64,000 bases of DNA from positions 1-64,000 of the IMG/VR virus record IMGVR_UViG_3300029429_000001; one strand, 5' to 3'. A model generated the notes under the pieces. The model was not told the DNA's origin and searched no databases. It saw nothing but the letters and a program-made list of their open reading frames with translations. The position numbers and the translations under genes are program-made. The DNA is from a virus. Every line of letters begins with the position of its first letter. The stretch's first letter is position 1. This document shows, in pieces, positions 5,804-58,517 of this stretch.

Positions 5804-5861
5804 TTAATAAAATACCCAGATAATGATAAAAACCCCTATTTTTATAGAGTTAAACCCTCCC

Positions 5862-40293: not shown

Positions 40294-40354
40294 AATACCG
40301 ATTAAACCTCTAAATAGTATTGATATGGTATTAAAACGATATCTTTTTGATACT
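40294..40354. repeat. 11-bp-periodic RRTAYY array 1
   Basis: Units at 40294, 40316, 40327, 40338, 40349. Confidence 0.7.
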
Positions 40355-40358
40355 TTTG

Positions 40359-40982
40359 TCAGTTAACCGATTTCATGACTGAGCCCGATCTTTCAACGTC
40401 ATCACAGCAAGCAAATAGCACATTACCTATTGAGGGGTGCATGAGCCTGGCGACTCGATCGAGCACTTCGAGTTTAATCTCGCTGGAGAATTCACCTGCC
40501 GGTACCGGCATCATGACGCTCTCAAATTTCTTGAGCGCTGCCTCTAAATCTGCCGGGATCAAACTAACCTCAGAGCTATTTTGCTTGGACATATCGACTT
40601 CCTTTTTAGCTGGTTCTGAAGTCTTGAATGCGACCTCTCTTGGCCGGACTGTACTCTTAATAATTACCGGTGCCGGCGCGGCCTTTTTAGGCTGCACTTT
40701 CTTGGCTGGCTGTACTTTTTTGATTGGCTGTTTTTTCTTTGCCGGCGCGATCTTGGCTGGCGGCTCTTTCGGACCTGGACCTATGGGATTGGTACTCAGT
40801 ACTTCACCCAGGATATAAACCCTGCCGACTTTCATTAATTTCCCCTCATGAACAAGGGTCCTAATGGTCATGCTGACTTCTTCACGGGATTCGGTCATAT
40901 CCGTGCTTTCGTAAATACCCAGGGATGCCAGGCCCAAACTGGATTCTTTAACCGCGGCTATAATTTCTTCATCTAGGGTCAT
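40359..40982 (-). CDS. Hypothetical protein, N-terminal winged helix
   Basis: wHTH-like N-terminus, K/P linker. Confidence 0.55.
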   Translation of the reverse strand: MTLDEEIIAAVKESSLGLASLGIYESTDMTESREEVSMTIRTLVHEGKLMKVGRVYILGEVLSTNPIGPGPKEPPAKIAPAKKKQPIKKVQPAKKVQPKKAAPAPVIIKSTVRPREVAFKTSEPAKKEVDMSKQNSSEVSLIPADLEAALKKFESVMMPVPAGEFSSEIKLEVLDRVARLMHPSIGNVLFACCDDVERSGSVMKSVN

Positions 40983-41626
40983 GGATTCACCTGGCACAAT
41001 TCCAGGGGATCTGTGCCCAGGCGCAAACCTTTAACGGCCGTCCGGATCTCATCAAACATCAACTGAAACGATTCTCTAGGCTTGCCCTCTTCATTGTGTA
41101 CATCTATGAAAACAACATCAGGATAATCATCTGGGTTAATGTAATACCGGGAATCCTTAGCGCGCTTTTCGGTTGCCTCATACGAGTAGCCGTCCCGAAA
41201 CACTCGGACCACGATCACGCTATTACCCGGCGCCTTATTGGCTACCACTGCCAGCTCTTCATTAAATCCAAGATCACTATAAGCGGCGCCATTAACCGCC
41301 CTCATGGATTCCCTGCAAACAGACTCAGCAAAGTAGCCTTGGCCAAAATTGGGTTTAATGAATGTTTCTGCAATCAAGATCTGCAGGCTGCGGCAGCTAT
41401 GGCCGAGCAATTGAGGTCTAACTAATTCTTTATCTTCACGGTACCACTCCTCCCACTGCCCCTGACCTAAGCCAGTAAGTGCCAGGCAGAGATTAATTAC
41501 CTGCGCCTTGAATTCAAAAGCACTGGCATGAGTGGCATCCACCAGCATGGCGACCAAAGTATCTTTGCCGGCACTAGGGGGCGCATTAAATGCGATATGG
41601 ATTCCAGCGAGGCTAAACGGTTTCAT
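40979..41626 (-). CDS. Deoxynucleoside monophosphate kinase-like
   Basis: NAPPSAGKDT, RSLQI..AE..KP.FG, SDLGF.EE, DSR. Confidence 0.8.
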   Translation of the reverse strand: MKPFSLAGIHIAFNAPPSAGKDTLVAMLVDATHASAFEFKAQVINLCLALTGLGQGQWEEWYREDKELVRPQLLGHSCRSLQILIAETFIKPNFGQGYFAESVCRESMRAVNGAAYSDLGFNEELAVVANKAPGNSVIVVRVFRDGYSYEATEKRAKDSRYYINPDDYPDVVFIDVHNEEGKPRESFQLMFDEIRTAVKGLRLGTDPLELCQVNP

Positions 41627-42515
41627 TTTTAGCCATCGACGCCGCTAGGGCTTTATCCAGGCCGCCCATTGAGGTAGTTAGATCGTTTAAGAATTGCGAG
41701 ATCCAGGCGAGAAATACGCCGAATTCATGGTAAAAACGGGACTCTTGATCTTCACCAGGCAGGCTATCGTCATCGCCAATAGACTTGATCGATTTCATTA
41801 CCAGGTCACTATCCAGCTTAAACGTGACCATTTCACGCCAGCTAACCTTGGCGCTCTGCACTAAAAAGCCGTCATCTAAGGCCTGTCTAACCAGGTCGGA
41901 TTTAACCTCAATGTCACTAGATGAAAACTTACCGCCCTCTTCATCCTCAAAAGCCAATTGGTTAATCATTTCAAAATCAGGGGGAGTCTCATCAGATAAC
42001 CAGTGTGTCATCTCATGGGCTGGATCTCGCTCAGTTCTGGGCAGGCTGACAGCCAGGGAGCCCAGTGTTTCGCGTAAATAAGCTGTTATGTCATCCGCCA
42101 GCACTCCGGAGGAACACATAACCAACAGGCGGCCGTCGCGATTCATGATCACAACGGGAACAATCGTATTTTTTACCCAGGACTGGGGCAGTAACTCAAG
42201 AATAAGCTCTTCTTTCATTTGCATTCGCAGCTTGCGGCTAGGCTTAAACCCTTCCCGCTCTTCAAAAGCTTCAAGTTTTTCCTGCAGAAAATCACTAACA
42301 ACACTGGCGGGCAATAAGCGCTTTTGCTGCTTAAACATGATCAACTGGCAGTTACTTTGCTCAATAACAAAGCTAGAACCAGGTAACGGCGGTACCCAGC
42401 CTTGAGACACTTGCTGGGTTTTTTCGCAGGGAGCGAATTTTTTAGATTCTATTTTTTCTTCTGGTAAAACTATCTGTCCCTTGGACACATACCAGATACA
42501 ACTTTTCGCCTGCAT
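41613..42515 (-). CDS. rdgC: Recombination-associated protein RdgC (P1 HrdC-like)
   Basis: FAPC..SQGWVPP, RLLPASVV, LLPQSW, LRETLGSL. Confidence 0.9.
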   Translation of the reverse strand: MQAKSCIWYVSKGQIVLPEEKIESKKFAPCEKTQQVSQGWVPPLPGSSFVIEQSNCQLIMFKQQKRLLPASVVSDFLQEKLEAFEEREGFKPSRKLRMQMKEELILELLPQSWVKNTIVPVVIMNRDGRLLVMCSSGVLADDITAYLRETLGSLAVSLPRTERDPAHEMTHWLSDETPPDFEMINQLAFEDEEGGKFSSSDIEVKSDLVRQALDDGFLVQSAKVSWREMVTFKLDSDLVMKSIKSIGDDDSLPGEDQESRFYHEFGVFLAWISQFLNDLTTSMGGLDKALAASMAKNETV

Positions 42516-42662
42516 TGCCGTTACTCTGCAAAATTCATTAATACCCAATGGACCATCTAATCCATCGGATCACGCACTAAAGCGCATAGGTGGTTAGCTC
42601 AGATCGGTTTTCACCACAAAAAAAGATCTTACTGCTGGGTATGAGCTAACCCCTATGAACTC

Positions 42663-43001
42663 TCACCTGGTTTGTTTTACCAGGGACAAAACTATTACAA
42701 CCGCCAGCATCAAGCTTGCTGACACCTCATGGTGGTTTGCTGCCCCATGATGGAATAACGCCATCGCCACCAGGCAGATAAAACCCTTACCCATGATCGT
42801 TGAAGACTTAGCCGGCAGATTAAATTCAAAGCGCCCTTTCAAAAGCCCTTCAACCACGCCAAACAATATAACCGCACATAGCAATGAGAGGCCTGCTGGC
42901 CAATGGACAATGAGCAGACTTAAGACAATGACGCCAAAAACCGCCATGAGTACCGCTGCCGGGTCTTCAAAGCTCCCCGAAAACCTGTTTAACCATTTCA
43001 T
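42663..43001 (-). CDS. Multi-pass membrane protein
   Basis: About four TM segments. Confidence 0.55.
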   Translation of the reverse strand: MKWLNRFSGSFEDPAAVLMAVFGVIVLSLLIVHWPAGLSLLCAVILFGVVEGLLKGRFEFNLPAKSSTIMGKGFICLVAMALFHHGAANHHEVSASLMLAVVIVLSLVKQTR

Positions 43002-43037
43002 TTACTGAGCCTCAAAATAGATAACGGTATAAGTACC

Positions 43038-43535
43038 TTAAATCCTTATCCAGCCTCGGGCGATCAATGCGGCCTCCAGCTGCGGGTATATCAGGCCTTT
43101 CGTGACCATATCGGAATCTGCACGCATCAGGGCTATACCAGCCATCACAGCGTGATTACCCTTCTCACAGTCCCGTTGATAGCCATCAGGCGTTAAGTGC
43201 CCGCTAATCGCCGTAGAACCGTCTTTACGCTTTTGCCCATGGTTTCTAGTGCCACCATCGACTTCGAGCGCCAGCCTGTAATCAGGCCAGTAAAAATCTA
43301 GTCTCCATTTCCGAGTATCATGAAACTTAAACTCGGAAATCGGACCAGGGAGGTTTAAGGCCCTCAGATCCCTAAGGAACCGAAGTTCAAGAGGTGATCT
43401 GGTTTTTTTATTTAGCCTAGGGTGTTTGGCAGTTCCGTTTTTTGAACCTGAAACATTGCGGTGCTTCGATTCTGGAATTTTGACTTTGCCTGAAGAGATG
43501 AGCATATCCAGCTCAGCTTGCTTCAATCGAGTCAT
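43038..43535 (-). CDS. PD-(D/E)XK endonuclease (DUF559-like)
   Basis: EFKFHDTRKWRLDF..ALEVDGG..RDCEK.N. Confidence 0.8.
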   Translation of the reverse strand: MTRLKQAELDMLISSGKVKIPESKHRNVSGSKNGTAKHPRLNKKTRSPLELRFLRDLRALNLPGPISEFKFHDTRKWRLDFYWPDYRLALEVDGGTRNHGQKRKDGSTAISGHLTPDGYQRDCEKGNHAVMAGIALMRADSDMVTKGLIYPQLEAALIARGWIRI

Positions 43536-43564
43536 GCCTTAAACCTCATTGGTCGATTTGAGAA

Positions 43565-43593
43565 GCATACCGGAAGTGTGCATGTGTTGCACA
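43565..43593 (-). promoter_or_regulatory. Operator TGTGCA-N5-TGCACA (43577-43593) overlapping early promoter
   Basis: Perfect palindrome; -10 TATGCT downstream on minus strand. Confidence 0.7.
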
Positions 43594-43754
43594 CGGTCTA
43601 TTTGACAGGAATTGTATTTATTGATTACTGATTATTTTATATACATTGAAACTTGCGAAGGGGTTGAGGCAAGGGGAGGGTTAAAATTTAGGACTAAAAA
43701 GGATTAAAAAGGAGGGGATTACGCTAAAATGGCTACAGGCCCCGTGGTTACTGG

Positions 43755-44112
43755 GTGTATAACTTTCAATCCTACCGCAAAGCATCCACCTTTCCTACCG
43801 CAAAACTACTGGATAGCCTACTCCAAAACATCCAGCAAACCTACCGCGTAGCATTCACTGTATGTATAACCCGAGCAGTTACGCACAGCTTAATCACAAT
43901 GTTCTCCACAGAAAATGGGGGTAACTGGCTAATATTCATATCCTGGTGCCAGTTATCCACGCTAAATCCAGCAAACCTACCGCAAAGCATCTAGGCAATT
44001 TGGTTATATACAGTAGTTTTTTGATCAATAAACACTCCCCTACCGCAAAACATCCAGCAAACCTACCGCAAAACATCCTGCATTTTGGCGGTTACTAACA
44101 GGTTTATGCACA
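43755..44112. other. Iteron-type plasmid replication origin
   Basis: 17-bp iterons CCTACCGCAAAACATCC at 43771, 43794, 43817, 43840, 43976, 44039, 44062 (23-bp period within clusters); DnaA-box-like TTCTCCACA, TTATCCACG, TTATATACA, TTATGCACA. Confidence 0.88.
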
Positions 44113-44408
44113 AACAAAAGACTAAAAAACCTTTAAGTAAATGTCATATAACACATTAAAGGAGGCTTAAAGCGTCAAATAATAGGGTCGGTTTATAGCT
44201 GAATTAGGGATTTCAGTGGCACACTGAGGTCGTCTATTCTGCTCTAAATCGATCAAACAACCGATAGGGCGTTAGGCTAAACTACTACTTTAGTGCTGGA
44301 TTATGACTTTGCAGTATAAGACTTAAGAAGAGCATACCCTGCAGGCCCCTAAACATAGGGGGGCTTGTGCTGGAATTCGTAGTAAGACCATCAGGAATGG
44401 AGCGTCGC

Positions 44409-44560
44409 ACTATCAATAAGTTGATAGTGGCACTACACCCGCTCGAAGGGGGACTATCAAAAAGTTGATAACGCCACTACGAAACCTCGATACGGGACTA
44501 TCAATAAGTTGATAGTCCCGAGCTAATATATTAACCTGCCATTATCAGTTAATTGATAAT
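44409..44560. repeat. Four 20-bp palindromes ACTATCAATAAGTTGATAGT at exact 44-bp spacing
   Basis: 44409, 44453, 44497, 44541 (last degenerate); upstream of RepL-type gene. Confidence 0.8.
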
Positions 44561-44572
44561 GAGACGCTTAAT

Positions 44573-45130
44573 ATGTCAACGACAACCCCAAGACATGAAA
44601 TAAACCCCTTTCTAGTGGGAATGGACGTAACCGTAGGGTCCTCACAGGTTAGAATCTCCACTCTTGGTAAAGATGATAACATCATGATTAACCAGTCCAC
44701 AGGAGAGGTCACAGGCACTCACATAGTGGCGAGAAAGAAGATAGACAAGACTAAATTTGTTAAAACCTTCGCAGATTACATTTCTTTTACATTCGACTTA
44801 ACAAAAGCAGGCAATAAGGCCTTGCGAGTAGTCATGTGGGCCATTAAAGAGAACGCGATAGGAAAGGACCAGGTTGTTCTAGATAAGTACACTCATGAAG
44901 CTTTCATGAGCCACCACAGCGACCAAGAACCGCCGTTAGTCCTGAGTAAGCCTACATTTGGGCGGGGGCTTGGTGAATTAGAAAAAGCCAAGATTATCGC
45001 AAAAGCTAAACGCATTGGAACTTACTTTATTAATCCAAACTGCATATTTAATGGCGATCGTGTGGCGTTCACAACGATCCTAGAAAACAGCAATAGTGAC
45101 GATACCCAATCACAAGGATCACTGATATAG
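44573..45130 (+). CDS. Small-plasmid-type replication protein (RepL/RepA winged-helix family)
   Basis: NPF, INQSTGEV.GTH, FVK.F, TF.RGL.ELEKAKII, YFINPNCIFNGDR. Confidence 0.85.
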   Translation: MSTTTPRHEINPFLVGMDVTVGSSQVRISTLGKDDNIMINQSTGEVTGTHIVARKKIDKTKFVKTFADYISFTFDLTKAGNKALRVVMWAIKENAIGKDQVVLDKYTHEAFMSHHSDQEPPLVLSKPTFGRGLGELEKAKIIAKAKRIGTYFINPNCIFNGDRVAFTTILENSNSDDTQSQGSLI

Positions 45131-45172
45131 CTGCATGTGGCGGGCTTATTAGGCCGTAACCCGCCCTGCATT

Positions 45173-45220
45173 CCTACCGCAAAACATCCAGCCCCAAAGC
45201 ATTCCTACCGCAAAACATCC
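45173..45220. repeat. Two further perfect iterons
   Basis: CCTACCGCAAAACATCC at 45173 and 45204. Confidence 0.85.
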
Positions 45221-45269
45221 AGGGCATAATCGCCAGGCAAAAAAATAGAGGCTTAAAGCCTCTTATTTA

Positions 45270-46403
45270 CTACGCGAACTGTATCTCATCGGTTTCTGGC
45301 TCCATGGCCTTATCTGGCTTAGGTAACTTGCCTGGACTCCATTTCTTGGCTTTCTTCATTTCCTTAAGCCCCCTGGCATCGTCTAGCCAGTGTTTCGTCT
45401 TAACCCTGCCTGTAAAGTCTTTATGAGCCCATACAGTGACGATTCGATCTTCTATCTTGGTGCGACCGCCTAGGCCACTAACCTTAGCCGTTTTATTTTC
45501 GATATTGTATGCGCGGATAACATTGTTTTTCTTAAGGTCCTCCAGGGCCATTTTCAACTTACCCCAACTCTTGCTCGGGTTTTTTTCATAAAACCCAATA
45601 CAGCTGTTTTCAAGATATTTCCTGGCCGCAAAATTGTATTGAGTTTTATGGCCGGCCTGGCGGAATTTATAACTTAGGGTCTTTATCAGGTCTATTGCTA
45701 GATCTTCATTGAGCTTGCCCTGCAGCTCAATGTCATGAGCACAGTAATCACCTAGTGCAATGTCGCGAGCAAACGCCCAGTGAAATTCGCAATAACTTTT
45801 TGATTCCCGATCAGCCCTGTACATTTGTGCTGTGATCAGAGTTAGGTTGCTAATGCGCGTATTAACATTGGAGTGCGTAGCAGCATCAGAATTTTGAGCC
45901 ATCATAGGCAGGTCAATCGAGCTTCTAGCCAGTGTGTTTAGGGACTCTCGGATCTGCGCTACAGAATATTTCGTATCGAATATGTCCATAATCACGGTCC
46001 TAATTCCCTGGAGCGTAAAGGTAACGCCGATCTGGAGTTTATCCTTTTTCGGTACTGCGGCGCCTTGAGATGCCAGGTAGGCCAGAGCATCCTCCACCCT
46101 ATCCTCTCGTATGCTGGGGTTGCGGATTACATCTGATTTAACGGAGACGCCATTAACCATCTTTGTAATAGGTATTATCGCCGCACTCACACTGTATTCA
46201 ATAGGACCATCAGGGCCCTTAAATTCACGGTATTGAATATGATTGCCATTGGCACGGCGAAAAACGCGCTTAGTTAACTGGCTATACATGCCCGTTATAT
46301 TGGTCAGGCTATCTGCTTTTTCTTCAGCCAGCCCTAGGTTGGTGAAAATATTTAGCTGGCGCTCAAAATCATCAACCACAACTGGCAGATTATTACCCGG
46401 CAT
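45270..46403 (-). CDS. Plasmid replication initiator (RepA-like)
   Basis: PSIREDRVEDAL..LA, GVTFTL, YS..QIRESL..L motifs; adjacent to iterons. Confidence 0.75.
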   Translation of the reverse strand: MPGNNLPVVVDDFERQLNIFTNLGLAEEKADSLTNITGMYSQLTKRVFRRANGNHIQYREFKGPDGPIEYSVSAAIIPITKMVNGVSVKSDVIRNPSIREDRVEDALAYLASQGAAVPKKDKLQIGVTFTLQGIRTVIMDIFDTKYSVAQIRESLNTLARSSIDLPMMAQNSDAATHSNVNTRISNLTLITAQMYRADRESKSYCEFHWAFARDIALGDYCAHDIELQGKLNEDLAIDLIKTLSYKFRQAGHKTQYNFAARKYLENSCIGFYEKNPSKSWGKLKMALEDLKKNNVIRAYNIENKTAKVSGLGGRTKIEDRIVTVWAHKDFTGRVKTKHWLDDARGLKEMKKAKKWSPGKLPKPDKAMEPETDEIQFA

Positions 46404-46962
46404 CCTTAAACTCCTTTATTGATTCTGGTGGCGCCAATAGGCAAGTGGTTTCAAGTACAGAGAAGCCGGCCATGCGCAGCATCTTTTCCCATAGAAGGAA
46501 TTGAATACCTGGACCATGATTTTTAAAATAGTTATAGAAGACACGACGGCGAAAACCAGTTTTTAAAGCAAGTTGAATAACTGGGATTTCTTCTCCTTCC
46601 GGAGTCAAAAGCATTTCTTTAAGCGCTCTTACTTGGTGGCCGGTAGGTGGCGCCCAAACAGATCCAGACTCCATAAGAGTCGTATCCGGATTACACCAGA
46701 TAGAAAAACGTCGTTGCTTGTTTTTTTCACGGAAATAAAGAGGGGTATTTTTAACTTCCCCCTGGATATTCAATAGAGCGTCGGGCACTTCAGGGTGATT
46801 CGACTTAACGATTAAACGGCAGGGATCGATTTCTGAAGAGGCTAGCGCATATCGTAAATAGCGCTTTTCGGCTTTTACAGGGTCACTTGTTTCAACGAGA
46901 GCGTGTTTTACTCCTGGTGACTCAAGGTATTCTTTGTATATTTCTATGTTGTTGTTATTCAA
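46393..46962 (-). CDS. Regulator with KorC-like C-terminal HTH
   Basis: W.PPTG.QVR.L...LA..TG..RR.F..Y...I.F..W..L...AG resembles IncP KorC. Confidence 0.6.
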   Translation of the reverse strand: MNNNNIEIYKEYLESPGVKHALVETSDPVKAEKRYLRYALASSEIDPCRLIVKSNHPEVPDALLNIQGEVKNTPLYFREKNKQRRFSIWCNPDTTLMESGSVWAPPTGHQVRALKEMLLTPEGEEIPVIQLALKTGFRRRVFYNYFKNHGPGIQFLLWEKMLRMAGFSVLETTCLLAPPESIKEFKDAG

Positions 46963-46998
46963 TGTCTAAACTCCGGCATGAGTTTTATAGCGGTTTGC

Positions 46999-47027
46999 AG
47001 GGTACTCTATGTGCAACAGGTGCACAA
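46999..47027 (-). promoter_or_regulatory. Promoter TTGTGC-17-TACCCT with operator TGTGCA-N5-TGCACA (47010-47026)
   Basis: Perfect palindrome upstream of the regulator-rep operon. Confidence 0.7.
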
Positions 47028-47049
47028 TAAAGCCCCTTAATTAACAGCC

Positions 47050-47589
47050 CTAATCTAGGACCATCTCCTTGTCTGATGGCGGCTCACCATCTAATCCATC
47101 TATCGCTTGATCCACTTTCTCTTTATCACAATGAGACAATTGCTCTTTCACAGAGTGCATTTGCTTGTTGTTTATATAGAGAGAGTCGAAAGTTTTGTTT
47201 CTTTTATTGATCAAGTGCTTTTGAAGAAACACCAGGGCAATTGTTCTTAGGTCCTCTCGCTCTTCCAGGTCAGGGAAAAATTTATTCCTCGATATGGACA
47301 GATAGGCCCGTGATGGGCTGTTTTCTTCTCGCTTAGCCGATTCACCATCAACCGTAACCCATAGGCGATTATTACGTTTTTTTAGAAATCTATGTATCAG
47401 CTGGCGAGCGTAAGAGTGGTTAGGCTGATTTTTACGATTCAAAATACCGTAACTAACAGCCAAGTCTTTAACCGACACTTCAGTATGATGAAGGTATATG
47501 TAGGACATTATCTTGCTTGTATCTTCATCGTAAGATCGATTCACACGATTCCTATTTTCGTCTATTGAATTAATTACATCGTCACTCAT
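47050..47589 (-). CDS. Hypothetical DNA-binding protein
   Basis: Basic, HTH-like VSVKDLA; GGAG RBS. Confidence 0.55.
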   Translation of the reverse strand: MSDDVINSIDENRNRVNRSYDEDTSKIMSYIYLHHTEVSVKDLAVSYGILNRKNQPNHSYARQLIHRFLKKRNNRLWVTVDGESAKREENSPSRAYLSISRNKFFPDLEEREDLRTIALVFLQKHLINKRNKTFDSLYINNKQMHSVKEQLSHCDKEKVDQAIDGLDGEPPSDKEMVLD

Positions 47590-47618
47590 TAAACTTTGCT
47601 CCAGGGCCCGTTAAGCCC

Positions 47619-48155
47619 TTAACTTCCCATCGCCAGTGCCAGGTATCCGACCCGGACGCGGTGAGTCTTACAATACTGGGCAAATTCCTTAACAACCCCT
47701 CTAAATCTACCTCCGGCATGCTCGGAGTGATCCAAGTACTTCCTGCTTTTTATCCCACAATATGTACAAAGCCAGTCCCGGGAATAAGCTTCCCAGCGTC
47801 GAGATAGTGGCAATTTAGAATGAACGGCAAAGCTTTCGCCCTGCTCAATATCAACCCCTTTGGCCCCTGCCTTAGCTTGTAAAAACTGATGAAACGCGGC
47901 ATCTCTACACATTTGACCTGCTGTAGCGGTATAAGCACCACCAACAACATCGCCGTCATAATTAGCCAGCATCAAGCTCGCCTCTATGATCATTTTTCGA
48001 GAGTCTTTAGCATCGCCTAACATTTTGGCCGTCTCTTCAGTCACCTGAAACGATGCCCGGTAAGTTATGCCGTTAGCGTTGCTTACCGATATTTTTGGTC
48101 GGTAAAGGGCGACGGTAATGGGGCTGCCAATGCTATCTAGCGGGTTTGCGCTCAT
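47619..48155 (-). CDS. Conserved phage hypothetical protein
   Basis: MCRD..F..FL, CGIKSRK.LD motif. Confidence 0.6.
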   Translation of the reverse strand: MSANPLDSIGSPITVALYRPKISVSNANGITYRASFQVTEETAKMLGDAKDSRKMIIEASLMLANYDGDVVGGAYTATAGQMCRDAAFHQFLQAKAGAKGVDIEQGESFAVHSKLPLSRRWEAYSRDWLCTYCGIKSRKYLDHSEHAGGRFRGVVKEFAQYCKTHRVRVGYLALAMGS

Positions 48156-48213
48156 ACGTTTACATTACTCGCTTTTGAGTGTGCATTCATTACACACCTC
48201 ATTGTGTGAATGT

Positions 48214-48519: not shown

Positions 48520-48710
48520 TTTCCGCCCCCTTATACTGGTGAGTGAAAAGCAAGGTAGTTGCTTTTCCTGGCGGCAATTCTACCAGAAAGAAATAAGAAA
48601 GAAATAAGAAAGAAACAAGAAAAAACACAGGATTAATACTTGATATGCGTGCGACCCTAGATTAGGATTCGCATATTCGGATTAACGGACGAATAACAAA
48701 ATAGGACAAA

Positions 48711-50830: not shown

Positions 50831-50843
50831 CGGAGCGCAGACG

Positions 50844-52862
50844 ATGACATTTTTTGATCCAGAGCAATACAAAGCAGATCAGTTTTTAGTGATGACGGCA
50901 TTTAATAAAATGCTGGCCGGCACTGAAGATTTTCCCATTGAATTTACGGACCCGGACGGCAATGAAACACTGGCATACATTGGCCAGGGCAAAGCCTATC
51001 AAGCCGGCGAGCTTGCTGGTTTTTGTGCTGAGCTTAAGGCGCTGGACCCTGAAACAGGGGAGGTATTAAGCCTGCCGGTTGATTTTGTAAAGATATGCGA
51101 GGTACCCGAGGTAGCTGAGCCACCAGCCCAGGAAACAAAACAGGCAGCATCTAAAATTGCAGCTGAGCTTGTGACTGCAGCAACAAAGGCAGCGGCCGGC
51201 ACCGTCAAAATTGCAGGGGTTGACCTTACACCCGCCAGCCAACTTAAACGCCCTAAGGCGGCCGCTAAGCCCAAGATTGAACCAGTACAGCCAGAGCCAA
51301 AGAAAGCTAAGCTTGTGGCCGTAGAAGGGCAGGGGACCACCCCCAAAGCCACCCCCAAGGCTGAAGTCGCACCCTTAACGGTTAATGAGCCGCTAGTGCT
51401 GGCGGATATCCCAGCCGAGACCAATGACAGCGACACCAGGCGCATTACCAGCCTTAAAATCACTAACATCATGGGCATAGATGAAATGCTCATACCCTTA
51501 AACGGAGTGGCCACCTTTGTTGAAGGCGGGAACGGGCAGGGTAAAACGTCGGCCCTAAAAGCTGCCCAGGCGGTAATCGGAGGCGGGTACCCTGCAGAGT
51601 TAATCCGTAATGGCGCCGAATCCGGAGAGGTTGTACTGGTAATGGATGATAAATCCACCGTGCGCAAACTCATCTCTCACAAGAAAAGCAGCACCACCAT
51701 CGTTAAAGATGAAGCCGGCAAAAAAATAAACGCTCCTCAGAAATTCCTAAACACGTTATTCGATAGCGTCGCCGTGGACCCGCGGGCGTTTCTTGATTCC
51801 AATGCTAAAAAGCAAGTACAGCTAATGCTCGAAGCCTCGCCTATGAGCCTGACTGTAGAGCAAGCTGCCCAGGTAGCCGAAGTGGCGCCAGAGGTGGATC
51901 TGACAGAGCACCCACTCTACGCCCTGGATTCAGCAATCAAATATATCAATGCCGATCGCACCCAAACCAATGCTGACATTCGATCCCAGGAAGCTTTTAG
52001 AGGCCGGATTAAAGATGGCCTAGCAGAACAAGAGGGCGATACCACTAAGGACCTGGACGGCCTAAACGAGAGTTTGGCCACAGAAAAAGACAAACTAAAT
52101 AAGGTCCACCAGGTTTGCAATGATGATACCAATACCATCAGAGAGGAAGCGGATAAAAACAAGCATGAAATCAGCCTGGAAAACGCCGATGAAATCGAAA
52201 AGCTACAGGACAATAAACGCGAGCTCGAGCAAGAAATAGAATCACTCCAGCAAAGAGCGGCCAACCTGGCTCAAGAGGCGGCGCTCATTCAGGCTAAGTG
52301 CGATAGCAAGGCTAATGAAAATATCCCTCGCCTGGAAGCGATCACGGCCAAAATGGGAACCGACATATCAAACCGCAACGCTGCCGCCATGGTCGAGCAA
52401 AATTCCCTAGAAAATGAAATTGCAGCTATTGAGCGTAACATTCATAACTACAGCCACTATCAACGTAGCCTGGATAATATCGCCGGATATGACGCAGAAA
52501 TTAAGGAATCAAAGGACCTTAAAAATAGCCTGGATAGCCACCTGGAATTGATCCAAAAGATTAAATCAGAGATCTTAAAATCCATCCCCATAGACGGCCT
52601 GGAAGTGACTGAAGAGGGCATATTCCATGGGGGCGTTAAATTCTCTCTACTCAATACAGCCATGAAAGCCAACATCGCGATCAAGGTGGCCGTCATGCGC
52701 CTGGACCAAAACCCGGACGCTGTACGCCTGGTAATAGTGGACGGTCTCGAGTCGATGGATAGCGGTACCATTCACGCACTCATTGACGCTGCAGCCCATC
52801 AAAATGTACAGATATTCGGTGCCAGGACCACAGACAACGAACTAGCCATAACCCACCACTAA
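50844..52862 (+). CDS. SMC/Rad50-like AAA ATPase with coiled coil
   Basis: Walker A GGNGQGKTS, long heptad region, Walker B LVIVDGLE; ~190-aa N-terminal extension. Confidence 0.8.
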   Translation: MTFFDPEQYKADQFLVMTAFNKMLAGTEDFPIEFTDPDGNETLAYIGQGKAYQAGELAGFCAELKALDPETGEVLSLPVDFVKICEVPEVAEPPAQETKQAASKIAAELVTAATKAAAGTVKIAGVDLTPASQLKRPKAAAKPKIEPVQPEPKKAKLVAVEGQGTTPKATPKAEVAPLTVNEPLVLADIPAETNDSDTRRITSLKITNIMGIDEMLIPLNGVATFVEGGNGQGKTSALKAAQAVIGGGYPAELIRNGAESGEVVLVMDDKSTVRKLISHKKSSTTIVKDEAGKKINAPQKFLNTLFDSVAVDPRAFLDSNAKKQVQLMLEASPMSLTVEQAAQVAEVAPEVDLTEHPLYALDSAIKYINADRTQTNADIRSQEAFRGRIKDGLAEQEGDTTKDLDGLNESLATEKDKLNKVHQVCNDDTNTIREEADKNKHEISLENADEIEKLQDNKRELEQEIESLQQRAANLAQEAALIQAKCDSKANENIPRLEAITAKMGTDISNRNAAAMVEQNSLENEIAAIERNIHNYSHYQRSLDNIAGYDAEIKESKDLKNSLDSHLELIQKIKSEILKSIPIDGLEVTEEGIFHGGVKFSLLNTAMKANIAIKVAVMRLDQNPDAVRLVIVDGLESMDSGTIHALIDAAAHQNVQIFGARTTDNELAITHH

Positions 52863-52922
52863 ATACTAATAAAGTATCATTTCGGTATCTTTTCAATACT
52901 TATATAGGGTTGAATAGATATC
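52862..52922. repeat. 11-bp-periodic RRTAYY array 2
   Basis: Units at 52862, 52873, 52884, 52895, 52917. Confidence 0.75.
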
Positions 52923-52998
52923 GAATTGGGGCTTTTACCCTTCTATTTTTCTCCCGTTGCTGTTACCGTTCGCAAATTACTTGATACAGGTTTCCAGC

Positions 52999-53328
52999 AT
53001 GAGCCAAGACGAAAACACCCTACTTCCATGGGAAAGCAACACCCACGATCGCAGTTTTGATGCTGATTCAGGGAAAACGGCTAACGCCGATATTAGCCAA
53101 TATGACATTGAGTGTATTAAGATCCTATCAGCTGCAAAACAGCAAAGTCGTATATCATACATAGCCAATGCGATCAGGCAGAGCATCCAAGCTGATGTGG
53201 ACGCACTGATTGAAAAAATCGGCATGGATGGCGTTAGACGGCATTACTCTCAAATATTGCTTAAAGAAGAAGAAAAACAGGAAAAAAAAGTAGCCAGGGC
53301 CAAAAAGAAAGCCCAGCAGCAACAATAA
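52999..53328 (+). CDS. Putative ribbon-helix-helix DNA-binding protein
   Basis: KTANADIS (strand) QYDIECIKILSAAK (helix) QQSRISYIANAIRQSI (helix). Confidence 0.6.
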   Translation: MSQDENTLLPWESNTHDRSFDADSGKTANADISQYDIECIKILSAAKQQSRISYIANAIRQSIQADVDALIEKIGMDGVRRHYSQILLKEEEKQEKKVARAKKKAQQQQ

Positions 53329-53344
53329 AAAATAAGGGAGCGTC

Positions 53345-54421
53345 ATGACTTATCTAATGCATAGACTTGCAAGCCTAATGACCGTTGCTGGATTGGGTCT
53401 TTGCCTATTCTCGCTATCGCTCTCTGCAATTGTATTCAGCTCAATTAGTAACGAACTCCACTACAAAATTATCTATAGCGGTTCAGCGATTTTGCTGGAG
53501 ATCATAAAGTTCGGCCTAGTCCCCTTTACCTTGTATTTTTATTTTAAAGGCAAGAAAATCGTCGCTGGATTTATTGCGATTGGCTTTATTTGCCTAATGG
53601 CTGTTTCGGTTATTGCCAGCATCGCCGGCCTTAATAAAGGCAGCAATAACATGGATAAAGGGTATCAAGAGGCTATAGCCGCTAAGGCAAGTATCACCGC
53701 CAAGATTACCAGACTGGAAGGCATGATCGACTCGCGAGACAAAGAAATTCTGTTTTACCAGGGCGAGGAAAGGATCAAGTCCGAGGTGGTATCGCGCCGA
53801 GCGGCAAACACCCAAGACTTAGCCGAGATTGACAACTTAATTATAGATCGGGCGGCCATCGTTGTTCCGGATCGGTCAGCCCTACTCCAAGGCATAGATG
53901 CCGTAAGCTCAATGATTAATGTCGAATCCACAGGAGATAGCAAGGCCATAGTGTATGCCGCATTCTCAGCGATTATAGAAATATTTGGTGCTTTAGCGCT
54001 GGCGGTTGGAGAAATTATATTCGCAGCCCGAAAAGAAGAAAAAACCGTCGCAGAAAAAAGGGCCTCAGTCGAGGCCGTTGCTGCAGATGAACGCCGTTAT
54101 TCTCATGAGAAAGAACTGGCACACATTGATAAAGAAAAGGCGGTTGCCATAGCCACAGGTTCAGCAACTCGATCACTAACAGCCACCAGCTCACCAACAG
54201 CCACCAGTTCAGCGCCCACTAAAAAGAAAGCCCAGGTAATCCCCCTGGTAGTTCCTGAGGCACCACCGGAGGTCAAGGGACCTGCAGATAAGATCATAGC
54301 CGAGATAAAACTGGCTATTGAAGAATTCAGAGTAAGCAACCCACCAAAAGCTAGAGAGATAAGCGCCCTAGGGTATCCTTCATCCGTGGCAAGGCAAGCC
54401 GAGCGTTATTTCCAGGGCTAA
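53345..54421 (+). CDS. Membrane protein (3 TM + coiled coil + TM + soluble tail)
   Basis: Hydropathy pattern; GGGAG RBS. Confidence 0.7.
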   Translation: MTYLMHRLASLMTVAGLGLCLFSLSLSAIVFSSISNELHYKIIYSGSAILLEIIKFGLVPFTLYFYFKGKKIVAGFIAIGFICLMAVSVIASIAGLNKGSNNMDKGYQEAIAAKASITAKITRLEGMIDSRDKEILFYQGEERIKSEVVSRRAANTQDLAEIDNLIIDRAAIVVPDRSALLQGIDAVSSMINVESTGDSKAIVYAAFSAIIEIFGALALAVGEIIFAARKEEKTVAEKRASVEAVAADERRYSHEKELAHIDKEKAVAIATGSATRSLTATSSPTATSSAPTKKKAQVIPLVVPEAPPEVKGPADKIIAEIKLAIEEFRVSNPPKAREISALGYPSSVARQAERYFQG

Positions 54422-54531
54422 TCACCCTGTTTTTTTTAATCCAGGTATAGACCTAATAACCCTACAAAATATGTGGGCTGCTGTGTGCACACTCTTTTTC
54501 TTTTAAGTGCGTGTTAATCAGGGGTTTTATG

Positions 54532-54559
54532 AGTATAGCTGTGCAATAAATGCACACAA
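54532..54559 (-). promoter_or_regulatory. Leftward promoter TTGTGT-16-TATACT with operator (54540-54556)
   Basis: Perfect operator between convergent genes. Confidence 0.6.
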
Positions 54560-54562
54560 GAT

Positions 54563-54592
54563 AAAAAAGGGTCTTTATTAGACCCTTTTTTT
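54563..54592. terminator. Bidirectional terminator
   Basis: AAAAAAGGGTCT-TTATT-AGACCCTTTTTT. Confidence 0.85.
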
Positions 54593-54598
54593 ATTTGC

Positions 54599-55627
54599 TT
54601 ATGAGAATTGATTGCTACGCATGTTGGTGCGCTTGTTAAACAGGGCAGGGGAGCTGGCAACCGGCGCCTTACCATTTGCGTCATCAAGGATCACCTCGGG
54701 AGCATCCGCTTCAAACTTAGCGCGTTTAACGCCAGCCTTTTGGATGGTAACGAATAGTCCAGCCATGGCAGTAGGGCAGCCATCCAGGATTAAATCCTTA
54801 GTTTCCTGGTCCAGTCCACCCACACCCAGAGTATTCTCAACGCTATCAAGGATCTGCTGGCGTAAACCTTTTTCCTTTTCAATGGCGCTTTCAAGTACTG
54901 CGATCGCTTCAACCTTTTGAGTTAGCTCATCACGGGCACTGGCGAACTCACGTTCAACACCATCCAGTACAGCCTGGCCAAAAGCGGCAGCCTCTAATTC
55001 AGACTTGTAGGCCTCAGCTTCTTCGATGGCCTGGCCCTGGAACTGGAGTAGGGTAGCAGCACTGTCATCAGAGTTAAGGCCGGCAGCCATTAGGCTATCC
55101 AGGATAAGTTTATCCTGCTCACCATCGGCATCATCCAGGATGTAGCCGCGATTTTCGGCAAACAACGGGTTACGAACATAATCAAAGCCCTTGAAGGAAT
55201 CCAGGATGGTATTCATCCCCTTTTTACCACCGCCACAAGCCCAGCTAAAGCCGCCTACCTTAGAATTGTGCATACCCAAGGCCTTCTTGCCTTCGTCGTT
55301 ATCAAGGATCTGCTGGATGTGTCTCAGGTTGCCCATGGAGTCCAGCTCCAGGGTAGTGGTCACGTTAGACGGTACCGCATCAAAAACACCAACGGCGCCG
55401 CCAACTTTAACTAGGCTCTTTTCTTCAGGATCGAGACCGATAAATTTACGGACACCATGGCCAAAATAACCAACGATTTCGCGCAATTTCAGGCTTTCTT
55501 GCACCTGGTTACTATCAAGGACACGGCGTACATTATCTAAAATGTAATTCCGTTTCTGGCCGGTAAACTGGCGGCCACTATCCAAAATATTAAATTTACA
55601 GTCGATCTCATGCAGTACGGTAGCCAT
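54599..55627 (-). CDS. pro: Prohead protease (P1 Pro-like)
   Basis: GRQFTG..RNY, GYFGHG.R, PSNVT, H.Q.IL, GGFSWA, GFDYV; follows portal. Confidence 0.88.
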   Translation of the reverse strand: MATVLHEIDCKFNILDSGRQFTGQKRNYILDNVRRVLDSNQVQESLKLREIVGYFGHGVRKFIGLDPEEKSLVKVGGAVGVFDAVPSNVTTTLELDSMGNLRHIQQILDNDEGKKALGMHNSKVGGFSWACGGGKKGMNTILDSFKGFDYVRNPLFAENRGYILDDADGEQDKLILDSLMAAGLNSDDSAATLLQFQGQAIEEAEAYKSELEAAAFGQAVLDGVEREFASARDELTQKVEAIAVLESAIEKEKGLRQQILDSVENTLGVGGLDQETKDLILDGCPTAMAGLFVTIQKAGVKRAKFEADAPEVILDDANGKAPVASSPALFNKRTNMRSNQFS

Positions 55628-57333
55628 TAGGCCTCCTCATTTTCTTCGGGTAGGATCTCGGAAAGAATGCCGTATACAGCACTCCTCAAGTGGGGGTCTT
55701 GCTGTGTAAAGGGGGTAGTCGCGGAATCAAAGATAGGCGGCTTGGCTGGGGCGGCAGGGGGGCCACCAGGGGCACCATCACCACCACCATCGCCGGCAGG
55801 TGCACCCTTAGACTTAACGGCCTTATATTCTTCTTCAGTCATGCCCAGGCGCGTCACCAATATATGGCGAACGTATGCGCCCCGGTCCACTTCCTGCCAC
55901 TCAGGGTCCATGGTTTGAACAACTGTAATTTCCATGGTGGCGGAATTTAGTTTCGACTCGAACGCGGCCTGCTCTTCACGTTCAACTGCAGTGGCCGTGC
56001 TATTAAATACAATTTTCCAGGGGAGCTCACCTGGATAGACCTTGCCGGTTTTCTTAAATAAATGGAGCTCAGCTAGCTCGTTCATTGTGTCTGCAGCAAC
56101 AGAGCGAACCGAGTTTGCATAGGCGCCGGCCATTAAGGAGACTTGAAAAAATCCGCCGTCGCCTAATCCGCCAGACAAGTCTTCAGTAAAACCAAATAAA
56201 GCTTTGTCGATTCCCAGAGACGCGGCCAACAAAGACACACGAAAATGCATATCCTCGATGTGCGCAATATCAACAGGGTTAACTTCGGTTTGAATTCCGA
56301 TCTCGCCAGTAACGGGAATAATCACGTTTTCTACACTGGTCCTGGCGCCGGTCTCGTATTCTTTACGCTTGCGCTTGGATTTTTTGGAGCGGAATAGATT
56401 TACTACCTGGCCATAGTATTTAGCGGCTGCAGTGGGCGTCTGGTTCCCCGTGTTAACAGTGATAAAACGCTCTTTGCGGCCTGCTTTCTCCCTGGCGATA
56501 TCCAGCGATCGCATTGCCTTGCGTAATGATATGTACGGCTCATAAACCGTCTCAAATAGGGACCGGCCATAATTCTGGCTTTCGATTGGGTCCTCGTTAT
56601 CCGTGTCATCAGAGCGGATATCGAAGCGTAATTTATCCTTCCAAACTGGCTCCAGTTTTTGGTCTATATCCAGGGATTCCATCTTAAAAGCGATGAATTT
56701 CCAGGGCTCAAAAAGCTGATAGGTGCCATTACTATGGGTTTCAATATCTGTTTTATGCAGATAGCCCACGGTATTGCCGGCCACTTCATATTCTTTTATC
56801 TGGCTGGGGTTGGTATAGAAGTCATTGCGAATAGAAGTGATACCAATGCCGTCTGTAACATTGGGGCGCACATAGCAGACACCGTTTTTAATTGCGGCAT
56901 ACATCCACTTACGAATATTTTTGTTAAATAGTTGCTGCAGGTCTTCACGGAGAATTTTAGCCTCGGGCGTTTCCTTTTCGCCAATAGACTCAAACCTTAG
57001 GATTTCGCCACTCTCAGTCTTAGGCGCCAGGGCGTTATTGAGGTGGTGATTTAAGGCTGTATCAATGATGGGATCTTTCGCCATCATATCGTAGCAGTGG
57101 TACCGGTCCAGGCGATTGTCTGGCAGTAGATACTCGCTAGACAGGTACTCATCAACATCAAAAATGTCTTGAGATACGTTCCGGAATAGTTCGTTTAATA
57201 CATGGTGGGTATTGAAGCCATCGAACGGGGGCAGCTCAGAGGATGCCTGTGACAGGTCCACATCCTTACCAAACCCGTAGCGCCCCCAGAGGGCCTTAGC
57301 CTTACTTGCTTTCTTTTTTTCAGCCATGACCAC
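55627..57333 (-). CDS. prt: Portal protein (P1 Prt-like)
   Basis: LPDNRLDRY..MAKDP.I, ESQNYGRSL, LSGGLGDGGF. Confidence 0.9.
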   Translation of the reverse strand: MVMAEKKKASKAKALWGRYGFGKDVDLSQASSELPPFDGFNTHHVLNELFRNVSQDIFDVDEYLSSEYLLPDNRLDRYHCYDMMAKDPIIDTALNHHLNNALAPKTESGEILRFESIGEKETPEAKILREDLQQLFNKNIRKWMYAAIKNGVCYVRPNVTDGIGITSIRNDFYTNPSQIKEYEVAGNTVGYLHKTDIETHSNGTYQLFEPWKFIAFKMESLDIDQKLEPVWKDKLRFDIRSDDTDNEDPIESQNYGRSLFETVYEPYISLRKAMRSLDIAREKAGRKERFITVNTGNQTPTAAAKYYGQVVNLFRSKKSKRKRKEYETGARTSVENVIIPVTGEIGIQTEVNPVDIAHIEDMHFRVSLLAASLGIDKALFGFTEDLSGGLGDGGFFQVSLMAGAYANSVRSVAADTMNELAELHLFKKTGKVYPGELPWKIVFNSTATAVEREEQAAFESKLNSATMEITVVQTMDPEWQEVDRGAYVRHILVTRLGMTEEEYKAVKSKGAPAGDGGGDGAPGGPPAAPAKPPIFDSATTPFTQQDPHLRSAVYGILSEILPEENEEA

Positions 57334-57356
57334 ACAACTTAATAATAATGCCGGCC

Positions 57357-57406
57357 AGTCTATGGGGTCAGAGGGGAGGGTTTTGTGCCGTCGAATGTGT
57401 GTTATT
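57357..57406 (-). promoter_or_regulatory. Late promoter (portal/protease): AATAACACACATTCG-N29-TAGACT
   Basis: Shared box plus fixed spacing. Confidence 0.75.
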
Positions 57407-57722
57407 GCCCTGGCTGGATTTTTACGTTTTATAGACTAAGCTTTTAGTAGTGACCATTGATTAAGGGAGGTTATAGGGGCGTTTTTTCAGTCGTTGGGGG
57501 ATTGCGGGATAGGGCCGTGCTCCAGAGGCGTAGAATTGCCCCTGGAAGGGTATATCTATTCAATCGATCAATACCCTCCCCTATACATGAATTTCCGATA
57601 AATATCTATACCGGAAATTCAAATTATCGGGATAATAGGGGGGTTGGGTTTGTTTCAGGCATAAAAAAACCGGCACTTGGCCGGTCATTAATCGAACTAT
57701 TAGGAATTACCGAATAGTTGAA

Positions 57723-57959
57723 CTATCCGGAATTTCCGGGCAGTTGGGCTTGCTCCCTTTTAGCCTCCACCAGTTCTACCAGGCGTTTATATTCCACCCG
57801 GTTTAACTGCGGCTTTTCGTACAATTTAAGGCGCTCTTGATCTGCCTTAAGGTCCCTGTTTTCCCGTTGAAGCTCTGCTATTTGTTTCCGATATTTGGCC
57901 AGGGTCCGGCTATATGCGTTGTGCTCGCACGTCCCCTCAGCACATTTTTGTTGGGCCAT
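57723..57959 (-). CDS. Small coiled-coil protein
   Basis: Coupled to ulx; terminator hairpin at ~57663-57685. Confidence 0.5.
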   Translation of the reverse strand: MAQQKCAEGTCEHNAYSRTLAKYRKQIAELQRENRDLKADQERLKLYEKPQLNRVEYKRLVELVEAKREQAQLPGNSG

Positions 57960-58382
57960 TTAGCTCTTCACATAGTCCATCACGGCAATGACAGATTCCA
58001 TCTCACGGTCCTCTAAAATGTAATCGACGGTCTCGCCATTACCTACCGGCAACACATAGCGATTATTGCCAAAATTATTAGGGATACGGTCCAGTGATAT
58101 CAACATGCCGGCCGCCACATAAAGGTAATCATCCGGGTAAAACTCGCCCAAACTACCCTCGTAATTGTCGCCAAATTCATGGCCCATGGCATTAAGCAGC
58201 TCTTTAATTTTCCACCAGTAAGGACCAAAAGATCTATAGCGGGTCGGCTCTTTTTTGAGCTGGGCAGCGATACCATTGGGACCATCCAGGACCAATTTCA
58301 GCCACGCCACCCGGTCCTCATTTGCGCCATCAGCCGCCAGCGCATCGTCAATATCGCCCACGCTTATCGTTTCAAATTTCAT
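57960..58382 (-). CDS. ulx: Ulx-like DarB packaging enhancer
   Basis: YRSFGPYWWKIKELL matches P1 Ulx YRSYGPYW.EIKKLL; directly after darB. Confidence 0.8.
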   Translation of the reverse strand: MKFETISVGDIDDALAADGANEDRVAWLKLVLDGPNGIAAQLKKEPTRYRSFGPYWWKIKELLNAMGHEFGDNYEGSLGEFYPDDYLYVAAGMLISLDRIPNNFGNNRYVLPVGNGETVDYILEDREMESVIAVMDYVKS

Positions 58383-58434
58383 GCTGTTTATCTCTAATAT
58401 TGGGATATCGGCAAAGATACCCTAAAAATTCATT

Positions 58435-58517
58435 AATACCTAATTGGTATCATTTCAATATCAAAACAATACCGAATTAATATCATTTAAGTATCAATTC
58501 GGTATCGTATAGATATT
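58435..58517. repeat. 11-bp-periodic RRTAYY array 3 (8 consecutive units)
   Basis: AATACC, GGTATC, AATATC, AATACC, AATATC, AGTATC, GGTATC, GATATT every 11 bp. Confidence 0.85.

Follow-up and report, generated by a model that had tools for sequence, protein, structure and literature searches.

Low-copy phage-plasmids are thought to rely on partition driven by ParA, ParM or TubZ, and P1 offers the textbook ParABS system. Several sopC-type centromeres are dispersed over the genome of N15, where SopB binds single 16-bp palindromes that function together with the SopA ATPase. The parC repeats of plasmid R1 are 11 bp long, and phage phi29 encodes a membrane-anchored DNA-binding protein, p16.7. In the StbA system of plasmid R388, two sets of five 9-bp repeats with 2-bp spacing also give an 11-bp period (PMC3098194), and R388 segregation needs no plasmid-encoded nucleoside triphosphatase (NTPase) (PMC3098194; bioRxiv 10.1101/2022.04.29.490116). 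For TraM of F-like plasmids, an 11-bp distance between motifs improves binding (PMC3159463). Here we analysed a window of 64,000 nucleotides, the first 64 kb of the IMG/VR virus record IMGVR_UViG_3300029429_000001 (93,964 bp, a single contig, 95% complete by CheckV), which carries three arrays of the hexamer RRTAYY repeated every 11 bp. A fourth array lies further along the record, and one of the three adjoins an operon for a ribbon-helix-helix (RHH)-like protein and a membrane protein. We propose, with a probability of roughly 35%, that the four arrays serve as same-face docking sites for the RHH protein and/or the helix-turn-helix (HTH)-like domain of the membrane protein, coupling the element to the membrane.

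An earlier sequence-only reading of the window had reported RRTAYY hexamers at an exact 11-bp period at three sites, with eight in a row at 58435-58517. Both observations were borne out, and shuffled sequences gave no such sites (Table 1). The triple pattern RRTAYY-N5-RRTAYY-N5-RRTAYY matched ten times in the window, always within 40316-40354, 52862-52900 or 58435-58517, and never in 100 dinucleotide shuffles of the window. Across the whole record we found four chains with at least four in-phase hexamers, compared with none in 200 local shuffles, and the distances between hexamer pairs peaked at 11, 22 and 33 bp (18, 14 and 17 pairs, respectively, versus about 3.3 expected). The hexamers are degenerate and occur in both orientations (GGTATC, AGTATC, AATACC, GATATC and others), and they are separated by spacers with 83% A+T in a genome with 52% A+T. 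Since there is one hexamer per helical turn, all sites should lie on one face of the DNA. By analogy, this single-face layout is what cooperative coating by an RHH protein would need, and it would be equally necessary for DNA positioned along a membrane that carries anchored HTH domains.

The arrays are related to each other beyond the hexamer. A longer core, TTCGGTAT, is found in arrays 2, 3 and 4, with its reverse complement in array 3, and the shorter TCGGTATY occurs in reverse in arrays 1 and 3. Arrays 2 and 3 have in common a module of about 40 bp that ends in TATAGGGTT, a 9-mer whose two copies in the genome are confined to these arrays. The shared module keeps one genome orientation although the flanking genes lie on opposite strands, being sense to local transcription in array 2 and antisense in array 3. 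Array 3 additionally contains three out-of-phase hexamers (58396, 58404 and 58416) next to the ulx start, and a dyad of four hexamers centred near 58487. We rejected the idea that the arrays are simple duplicates of each other, since arrays 2 and 3 align with partial similarity only, as well as the idea that they are replicon iterons, which consist of another word, CCTACCGCAAAAC, clustered at 43.7-45.2 kb.

Table 1 Positions of the arrays, their associated genes and other sequence features (window numbering, which continues into the record; the L021 row uses the numbering of that contig; aa, amino acids)
Feature	Position	Strand	Details
Array 1	40294-40354		5 in-phase hexamers: 40294, 40316, 40327, 40338, 40349
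Array 2	52862-52922		5 in-phase hexamers: 52862, 52873, 52884, 52895, 52917; TATAGGGTT at 52903
Array 3	58396-58517		8 consecutive in-phase hexamers at 58435-58517; TATAGGGTT at 58518
Array 4	Record 67047-67129 (L001:3047-3129)		Past the window end; in-phase hexamers 67047, 67080, 67091, 67113, 67124
109-aa RHH protein gene	52999-53328	+	Directly after array 2
358-aa membrane protein gene	53345-54421	+	Starts 16 nt after the RHH stop codon
672-aa ATPase gene	50844-52862	+	SMC/RecF/RecN-type ABC ATPase head
212-aa protein gene	40359-40997	-	Winged-helix-like N-terminus; histone-H1-like Lys/Pro/Ala-rich linker PAKKKQPIKKVQPAKKVQPKK
Plasmid-type replicon	43761-45219	+	Iterons around RepL-like gene 44573-45130
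CCTACCGCAAAAC iterons	43771, 43794, 43840, 43976, 44039, 44062, 45173, 45204		Co-oriented
Four 20-bp palindromes ACTATCAATAAGTTGATAGT	44409-44560		Exact 44-bp spacing, just upstream of repL
darB-like gene	58527-65405	-	Giant DarB-like SNF2 protein; part in window 58527-64000
AACACACWTTCG word	5769, 14990, 31688, 57403, 68357, 77991; close variant 76690	-	Ahead of structural and dar blocks
TGTGCA-N5-TGCACA perfect palindromes	36445, 43577, 47010, 54540
L021 par locus	5443-6519		5-hexamer CGATATC-type array, parA, second array, RHH_1 gene

The first gene of the operon encodes a 109-aa protein with a disordered N-terminal tail carrying ENTxLPW, a strand at about residues 28-33, a helix at 34-46, a long helix at 51-108 and a basic C-terminal end. 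Taken singly, it had no match in Pfam, PHROGs or NCBIfam, no homologue in a word-indexed search of 5.8 billion proteins and no tblastn match in phages. A profile search of 1.84 billion representatives retrieved about six more small relatives (P0128-P0132 are among the family), and the resulting alignment conserves an ENTxLPWxDP tail, a (K/R)-(L/I)-S-(Q/E)-Y strand, a K-G-(Q/L)-(S/T) turn and amphipathic helices. In Pfam, two of the eight family members gave weak matches, and these were to RHH-type families only: DUF6290 (E 8e-4), NikA-like (5e-3), TacA1 (0.05) and PSK_trans_fac. A profile search of the PDB with the family returned nothing relevant. The AlphaFold2 model built with the family alignment (predicted local distance difference test score 83.5) shows an extended segment followed by the helices 34-46 and 51-108, and many of its listed Foldseek matches are RHH proteins (CopG, ParG, Arc, TacA and ParD), all at E >1. 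Its core superposes on CopG with a root-mean-square deviation of 0.5 over 34 residues and on ParG with 1.0 over 38, and the strand-helix-helix core with a G-x-S/T-type turn before the second helix, which defines RHH membership, is present. The RHH-like assignment made for this gene from sequence therefore holds, if weakly, on the family Pfam matches, the model and the Foldseek matches, and we accept the protein as a predicted, very divergent RHH protein whose long C-terminal helix gives it a TraM-like layout.

The second gene encodes a protein predicted to comprise three transmembrane helices, a loop of about 100 residues forming a coiled coil, a fourth transmembrane helix, a linker rich in Ser, Thr and Pro, and a C-terminal domain at about residues 305-358. 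The topology indicated by the positive-inside rule probably has the coiled coil in the periplasm and the C-terminus in the cytoplasm. Pfam gave no match to this protein, DUF2637 and ATPase domains included, and neither did tblastn against phages and plasmids, whereas in its full length it resembles unnamed protein clusters from Pseudomonadota and viruses that carry the wrong label 'SecY'. For residues 305-358 of an Atlas model, GntR, MarR and IclR HTH models matched at TM-scores of 0.5-0.6, and the model of a DUF2637-labelled membrane-protein cluster at 0.68, all of them weak values for so short a stretch; in these structural comparisons the C-terminal domain appears to resemble winged-HTH folds. 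The partner of the RHH protein is thus a coiled-coil protein with four transmembrane helices instead of an NTPase, as the sequence-only reading had it, and a winged-HTH-like C-terminus can now be added to the description.

Comparative support comes from a metagenome scan, which returned one relative, L003, a 16.5-kb JGI contig with a portal protein 49% identical to that of the record. Searches of viral and genome contigs for related loci with the RHH protein, the membrane protein, the portal, P0011 and the alignments gave nothing, and searches for homologous proteins with the RHH protein and the membrane-protein alignment recovered only the query proteins and the L003 copy. The gene order in L003 is darB, ulx, prt and pro, facing the convergent series of membrane gene, RHH gene, sbcC-like gene, recT and recE-like gene. 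Its membrane protein has 338 aa (30% identity, E 9e-43) and its RHH protein 116 aa (27% identity, E 1e-11). No RRTAYY array was detected in L003. Instead, its counterparts of the array 2 and array 3 junctions have an identical core of 25 nt in common, the longest repeated word in the contig, and carry units of the type AAAGGG(G), spaced by 10-11 bp and arranged as long dyads. The left arm has three units at the junction of darB and ulx and two at that of the sbcC-like and RHH genes, and the right arms are mirrored and partly degenerate. The position and architecture of the elements therefore appear to have been kept between L003 and the record, whilst the word has changed along with both proteins, which is the best indication, if a slender one, that the binder of the arrays is phage-encoded and co-evolving, with the adjacent operon as a candidate. 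The expectation that RHH gene, membrane gene and arrays would occur together in relatives agrees with L003, which keeps the gene pair and phased junction elements in another word.

By its gene content the record is a distant P1-like myovirus. The portal gene (55627-57333, minus strand) encodes a protein 31% identical to P1 Prt, with P0008 (61% identity) and P0011 as the closest portal relatives in protein searches; further P1-type products are Ulx-, Hdf-, DarA- and DdrA-like, and genes for SSB, RdgC and a RepL domain are present. A nucleotide search of GenBank phages and PLSDB plasmids with the locus gave no match. Of the eight co-oriented iterons on either side of the RepL-like gene, six lie upstream of it and two downstream, and near-matches to DnaA boxes lie close to the replicon at about 43901 and 43954. 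Since this replicon is of plasmid type, the record is likely to be a plasmid prophage, and whether it has a partition function is a sensible question.

We searched the whole record for partition motors. The AAA_31 and CbiA profiles gave no ParA match there, with positive controls in 14 of 14 genomes; the tubulin profile for TubZ gave none, with controls positive in 13 of 14 genomes; and ParB_N, also run with positive controls, was likewise without a match. The StbA_N profile for ParM had zero matches in the record, and its control likewise matched nowhere. The sole unassigned protein of the right size for ParM, a 377-aa open reading frame (ORF) at 45270-46403, was rejected after inspection by eye, the actin phosphate-1 motif being absent. 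The earlier observation that P1-type parABS is missing from its usual site thus extends to the entire record, in which no ParA-type or ParB_N match was found. The suspicion that a conventional NTPase might lie outside the window was met by the absence of ParA and TubZ matches from the 94 kb, with the ParM search left on a silent control. Judged by the features of described partition types, the record shows matches neither to the ParB_N protein and large ParA of type Ia (P1/F ParABS) nor to the deviant Walker-A ParA encoded with an RHH protein that marks type Ib; the short-repeat array beside an RHH operon, also a type Ib feature, is present as array 2.

Arrays of this type do occur in partition loci elsewhere. 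When IMG/VR was scanned for five phased hexamers, 84 loci were obtained, most of which are ordinary tandem repeats; the rest are heterogeneous, and we rejected treating the pattern matches as one family. Some arrays lie, iteron-like, inside replication-initiator genes (L016, L052 and L020), and others between an ArpU-like gene and terS (L011, L035 and L054). In L021, L032, L084 and L045, however, an array is followed by a gene for a 217-aa ParA (AAA_31/CbiA), a second array and a gene for a 93-aa RHH_1 protein, and L017 appears likewise on its ParA and RHH matches. These contigs are unrelated to the record, being GC-rich and phage-like with a P2-A-type Rep, yet their two arrays, 727-730 bp apart, have the hexamer type and period of the record. 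By this gene arrangement, GATATC-type hexamers on an 11-bp register do occur as repeat arrays in a type Ib-like par locus. The argument that such geometry suits an RHH centromere is therefore sound, as these contigs flank ParA with such arrays ahead of the RHH gene. Because the arrays of IMG/VR occur in heterogeneous settings, the geometry alone is not diagnostic.

We suggest the following course of events. Each array would be covered by several RHH dimers binding cooperatively, in the manner of ParG, ParR and TraM on their own sites, and the RHH-array complex would be joined to the inner membrane via the co-transcribed membrane protein. Four points around the iteron replicon would in this way fasten the plasmid prophage to the membrane, and anchoring or partition-like inheritance could result for which a phage-encoded NTPase is unneeded. 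Array 2 might additionally autoregulate the operon. The RHH and membrane proteins are probably the docking proteins of the arrays; we infer who binds the arrays, the contact between the two proteins and the biological outcome. A structural role fits better than a classical operator because array 4 is in coding sequence, arrays 3 and 4 lie in a late unit, and near arrays 1-3 no sigma-70-like promoter scores. The most far-reaching form of the proposal is that a P1-like plasmid prophage has had its ParABS replaced by NTPase-independent, membrane-tethered inheritance, with a TraM/ParR-like RHH protein on four arrays and a winged-HTH clamp with four transmembrane helices. We consider this rather improbable, and hold the same reservation about seeing in such a device membrane-attachment partition, the old idea of the replicon model, in a Gram-negative phage-plasmid. 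What appears to be new is an RHH repeat-array system with a membrane HTH-like partner in place of the NTPase. If the proposal is true, a motor-less, membrane-based route to stable inheritance would be added to those known, and 52862-54421 plus the arrays would make a small testable module.

Several observations count against docking. The HTH call derives from short structural matches on another group's model, and support for the RHH fold is sub-threshold, with Pfam E-values of 8e-4 to 0.05 in two of eight members and all Foldseek matches at E >1. The comparative case comes from one relative, L003. Arrays of GATATC type with an 11-bp period also occur in initiator genes and before terminase operons. 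The source contig measures 95,562 bp as against 93,964 bp for the record, and a small ParA could sit in the approximately 1.6 kb outside. The four palindromes ACTATCAATAAGTTGATAGT, spaced by 44 bp beside repL and without copies elsewhere in the record, are an alternative centromere candidate; each fits the IHF consensus WATCAANNNNTTR on both strands, and they may represent IHF sites, an operator of repL or a centromere of sopC type. Because of the stop codons directly beside the arrays, and the long hairpins into which some arrays fold, RNA-level roles are possible. The segregation function first suggested for the locus has on its side the arrays, the RHH protein, its membrane partner, the lack of ParA, ParB and TubZ matches, and the replicon, while an operator or regulon interpretation fits about equally well.

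The surroundings of the arrays bear directly on that regulatory interpretation. In each of the three intergenic arrays, no more than about 10 bp separate the start from the preceding gene's stop codon. Array 1 begins 5 bp past the stop of the minus-strand 212-aa gene and about 470 bp upstream of ssb. A 147-aa plus-strand ORF at 40375-40818 was rejected as a real gene, as its translation is low-complexity antisense junk and the overlapping minus-strand 212-aa ORF is preferred; array 1 is therefore not upstream of a credible gene. From the stop codon of the 672-aa ATPase gene, on which it begins, array 2 runs to 77 bp ahead of the RHH start. Array 3 begins about 10 bp past the stop of darB (58527) and precedes the ulx-like gene (start 58382) and a 78-aa gene, darB and the ulx-like gene both being on the minus strand; P1 has lxc in the position after ulx. 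Array 4 runs through the reading frame of a 956-aa InPase-domain gene (record 65414-68284, minus strand), which is upstream of the darB-like gene in the same late unit. The earlier statement that each array is upstream of a gene consequently fails, both for array 1 and for the intragenic array 4.

It is nearly as likely as docking that the same binder or binders act in a purely regulatory manner, with the arrays as operators or roadblocks for the RHH protein or for a ToxR/CadC-type membrane-anchored HTH regulator and no role in inheritance. The operon would then control its own expression, and read-through would be gated into the late unit of the 956-aa and darB genes, into the ssb side and into the ulx and 78-aa genes. 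Array 2 is immediately 5' of the RHH gene, where RHH autoregulatory or centromere sites are usually found, and the arrays stand at transcription-unit junctions. In P1, ssb is under repressor control and ulx-lxc has its own promoters. RHH proteins are mostly repressors, and ParG and omega regulate as well (PMC3130281), just as StbA sites of R388 recur in other promoters (PMC3098194). A scan for sigma-70-like promoters at arrays 1-3, however, scored nothing; array 1 is some 470 bp from the next gene, array 4 is within coding sequence, and the module of arrays 2 and 3 keeps its genome orientation despite the opposite strands of its flanking genes.

The phage, moreover, has two other sets of regulatory motifs. 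The word AACACACWTTCG is likely to be a late-promoter element, since L003 has a similar word, AAACACACATCCCG, ahead of its portal gene; arrays 3 and 4 are inside the late unit that begins at 68357, and prt has its own late promoter. The TGTGCA-N5-TGCACA palindromes are probably the main repressor operators: three stand at the heads of early minus-strand operons, and the fourth between the convergent membrane gene and pro, near a strong bidirectional terminator (about 54566-54596). As these separate motifs serve there, we rejected the arrays as late promoters or main-switch operators. Should the arrays turn out to be operators only, they would define a third regulon in this phage group and would still illustrate clearly how a binding word and its protein co-evolve while the genome positions stay fixed.

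Were the arrays bound by something other than the RHH and membrane proteins, which we regard as unlikely, this pair would be an accessory module with no connection to them, serving for example in superinfection exclusion, in abortive infection or as a toxin-antitoxin-like pair. Candidate binders would then be a further phage-encoded protein, for instance the 212-aa one encoded next to array 1, and a host nucleoid or response-regulator-type protein. Array 1 indeed abuts the 212-aa gene, whose product looks DNA-binding, GATATC-type arrays of other phages adjoin initiator genes and ArpU-like regulators, and the order of the operon, with the RHH gene first and the second gene 16 nt after its stop, resembles that of antitoxin-toxin pairs. 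Yet in L003 the word of both junction elements is altered along with the RHH-membrane pair, and a phage-specific word is not predicted for a host factor, unless the hosts differ. The 212-aa protein, for its part, has no match in Pfam, PHROGs or NCBIfam.

A role at the RNA level is very unlikely. The arrays would in that case be intercistronic hairpins, weak intrinsic terminators or RNase III-type sites after stop codons, and the phasing a by-product of the dyads. The position of every intergenic array close behind a stop codon is in keeping with this, as is the predicted folding of the array 3 region (-41.9 kcal/mol, z -6.2) and the array 2 region (z -2.8), and the equivalents in L003 form clean hairpins followed by T-runs (z -4.5 and -3.9). 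Array 1, on the other hand, has no significant fold (z -0.6) and array 4 is inside an ORF; hairpins do not need an exact 11-bp register over eight units with variable spacers, their stems here would be A+U-rich, and the shared module is antisense to transcription in array 3 whereas it is sense in array 2.

Conventional partition, through a small ParA in the 1.6 kb outside the record, a host ATPase or the ACTATCAATAAGTTGATAGT palindromes as the true centromere, is the least probable of all, for the longer source contig, the resemblance of tandem palindromes beside a replicon to F sopC (tandem 43-bp repeats, each containing an inverted repeat) and the ParA genes next to the same array type in L021-type contigs are set against a record that is 95% complete and in which no ParB_N or ParA-type domain was found, and against palindromes whose fit to the IHF consensus on both strands may simply mean IHF or repL operator sites.

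Other features of the region deserve mention in their own right. The ATPase gene that ends on array 2 is the last of a block of recE-like gene, recT and ATPase. The SMC-like character given to it by the sequence-only reading agrees with its type of ATPase head, and adjacency aside, no tie to the arrays was found. Just upstream of the recE-like gene, a short purine tract with an 11-bp period (48585-48625, AGAAAGAAATA, about three copies) uses a word different from RRTAYY. The stretch from ssb to array 1 (39827-40293), about 470 bp of non-coding, G+C-rich DNA, contains no credible ORF and no Rfam match, and could encode an untranslated RNA or a long leader. The only Rfam match was a tRNA gene in the early region (38558-38628, minus strand, 66 bits); the arrays gave none. 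The catalytic domain of a tyrosine recombinase is encoded by a 212-aa ORF at 23578-24216 (minus strand), preceded by an overlapping 134-aa ORF (span 23578-24613); jointly about the size of Cre, the pair may represent two genes or one recombinase gene that is split or frameshifted.

Set beside the described systems, the proposed docking of four arrays to the membrane combines elements that are otherwise found apart. N15 likewise has centromere-type sites scattered over a phage-plasmid genome, though these are single palindromes used with Sop proteins, whereas the record has phased hexamer arrays, and Sop/Par proteins were not found. Phi29 p16.7 and SpdB2/DUF2637-type proteins resemble the 358-aa protein in combining transmembrane segments, a coiled coil and a small C-terminal helical DNA-binding domain with a proposed membrane fixing of DNA. 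They differ in their hosts, in topology (four transmembrane helices and a probably periplasmic coiled coil in the record) and in the separate RHH protein of the record, and the library, phage and plasmid searches showed no sequence homology between them and the 358-aa protein. R388 StbA resembles the record in its 11-bp period; R388 segregation works without a plasmid-encoded NTPase, and additional motif copies lie in other promoters, connecting stability with regulation through one protein (PMC3098194). StbA, however, is an HTH rather than an RHH protein and acts without a membrane partner, and accessory sites outside the stbDRs are insufficient for stability (PMC3098194); the likeness is one of layout, with no homology seen.

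Closer in the type of adaptor is ParF-ParG/parH of TP228, with a small RHH protein that has a flexible N-terminal tail, degenerate short boxes in mixed orientation with A+T-rich spacers that are cooperatively coated, and an array immediately upstream of the RHH operon that doubles as the OF operator (PMC3130281). The ParG boxes are 4 bp on an 8-bp period as opposed to 6 bp on 11 bp here, and TP228 has the Walker ATPase ParF, of type Ib, where none was found in the record (PMC3130281). Its sites also form one locus instead of four dispersed ones, and ParG has no significant sequence match to the RHH protein of the record. The R1 ParM-ParR-parC system similarly places an RHH adaptor on tandem repeats upstream of its operon and wraps the DNA into a higher-order scaffold (PMC5016525). 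The length of the parC repeat equals the period of our arrays, whereas parC is a single locus with ParM as the partner, as against a membrane protein in the record, where the StbA_N search, with its silent control, identified no ParM. An architectural parallel to docking at the membrane is TraM with sbmA-C of F-like plasmids. TraM functions in conjugation at oriT, with motifs 12 bp apart on underwound DNA (PMC3159463); the 109-aa protein has no match to the TraM family in Pfam, and the membrane partner in the record is not a TraD-type ATPase, so that the likeness is architectural. It nevertheless extends to an N-terminal RHH domain with a long helical oligomerisation domain, to motifs on one helix face and to a DNA-bound RHH oligomer that touches the cytoplasmic tail of inner-membrane TraD and thereby tethers the DNA (PMC3159463).

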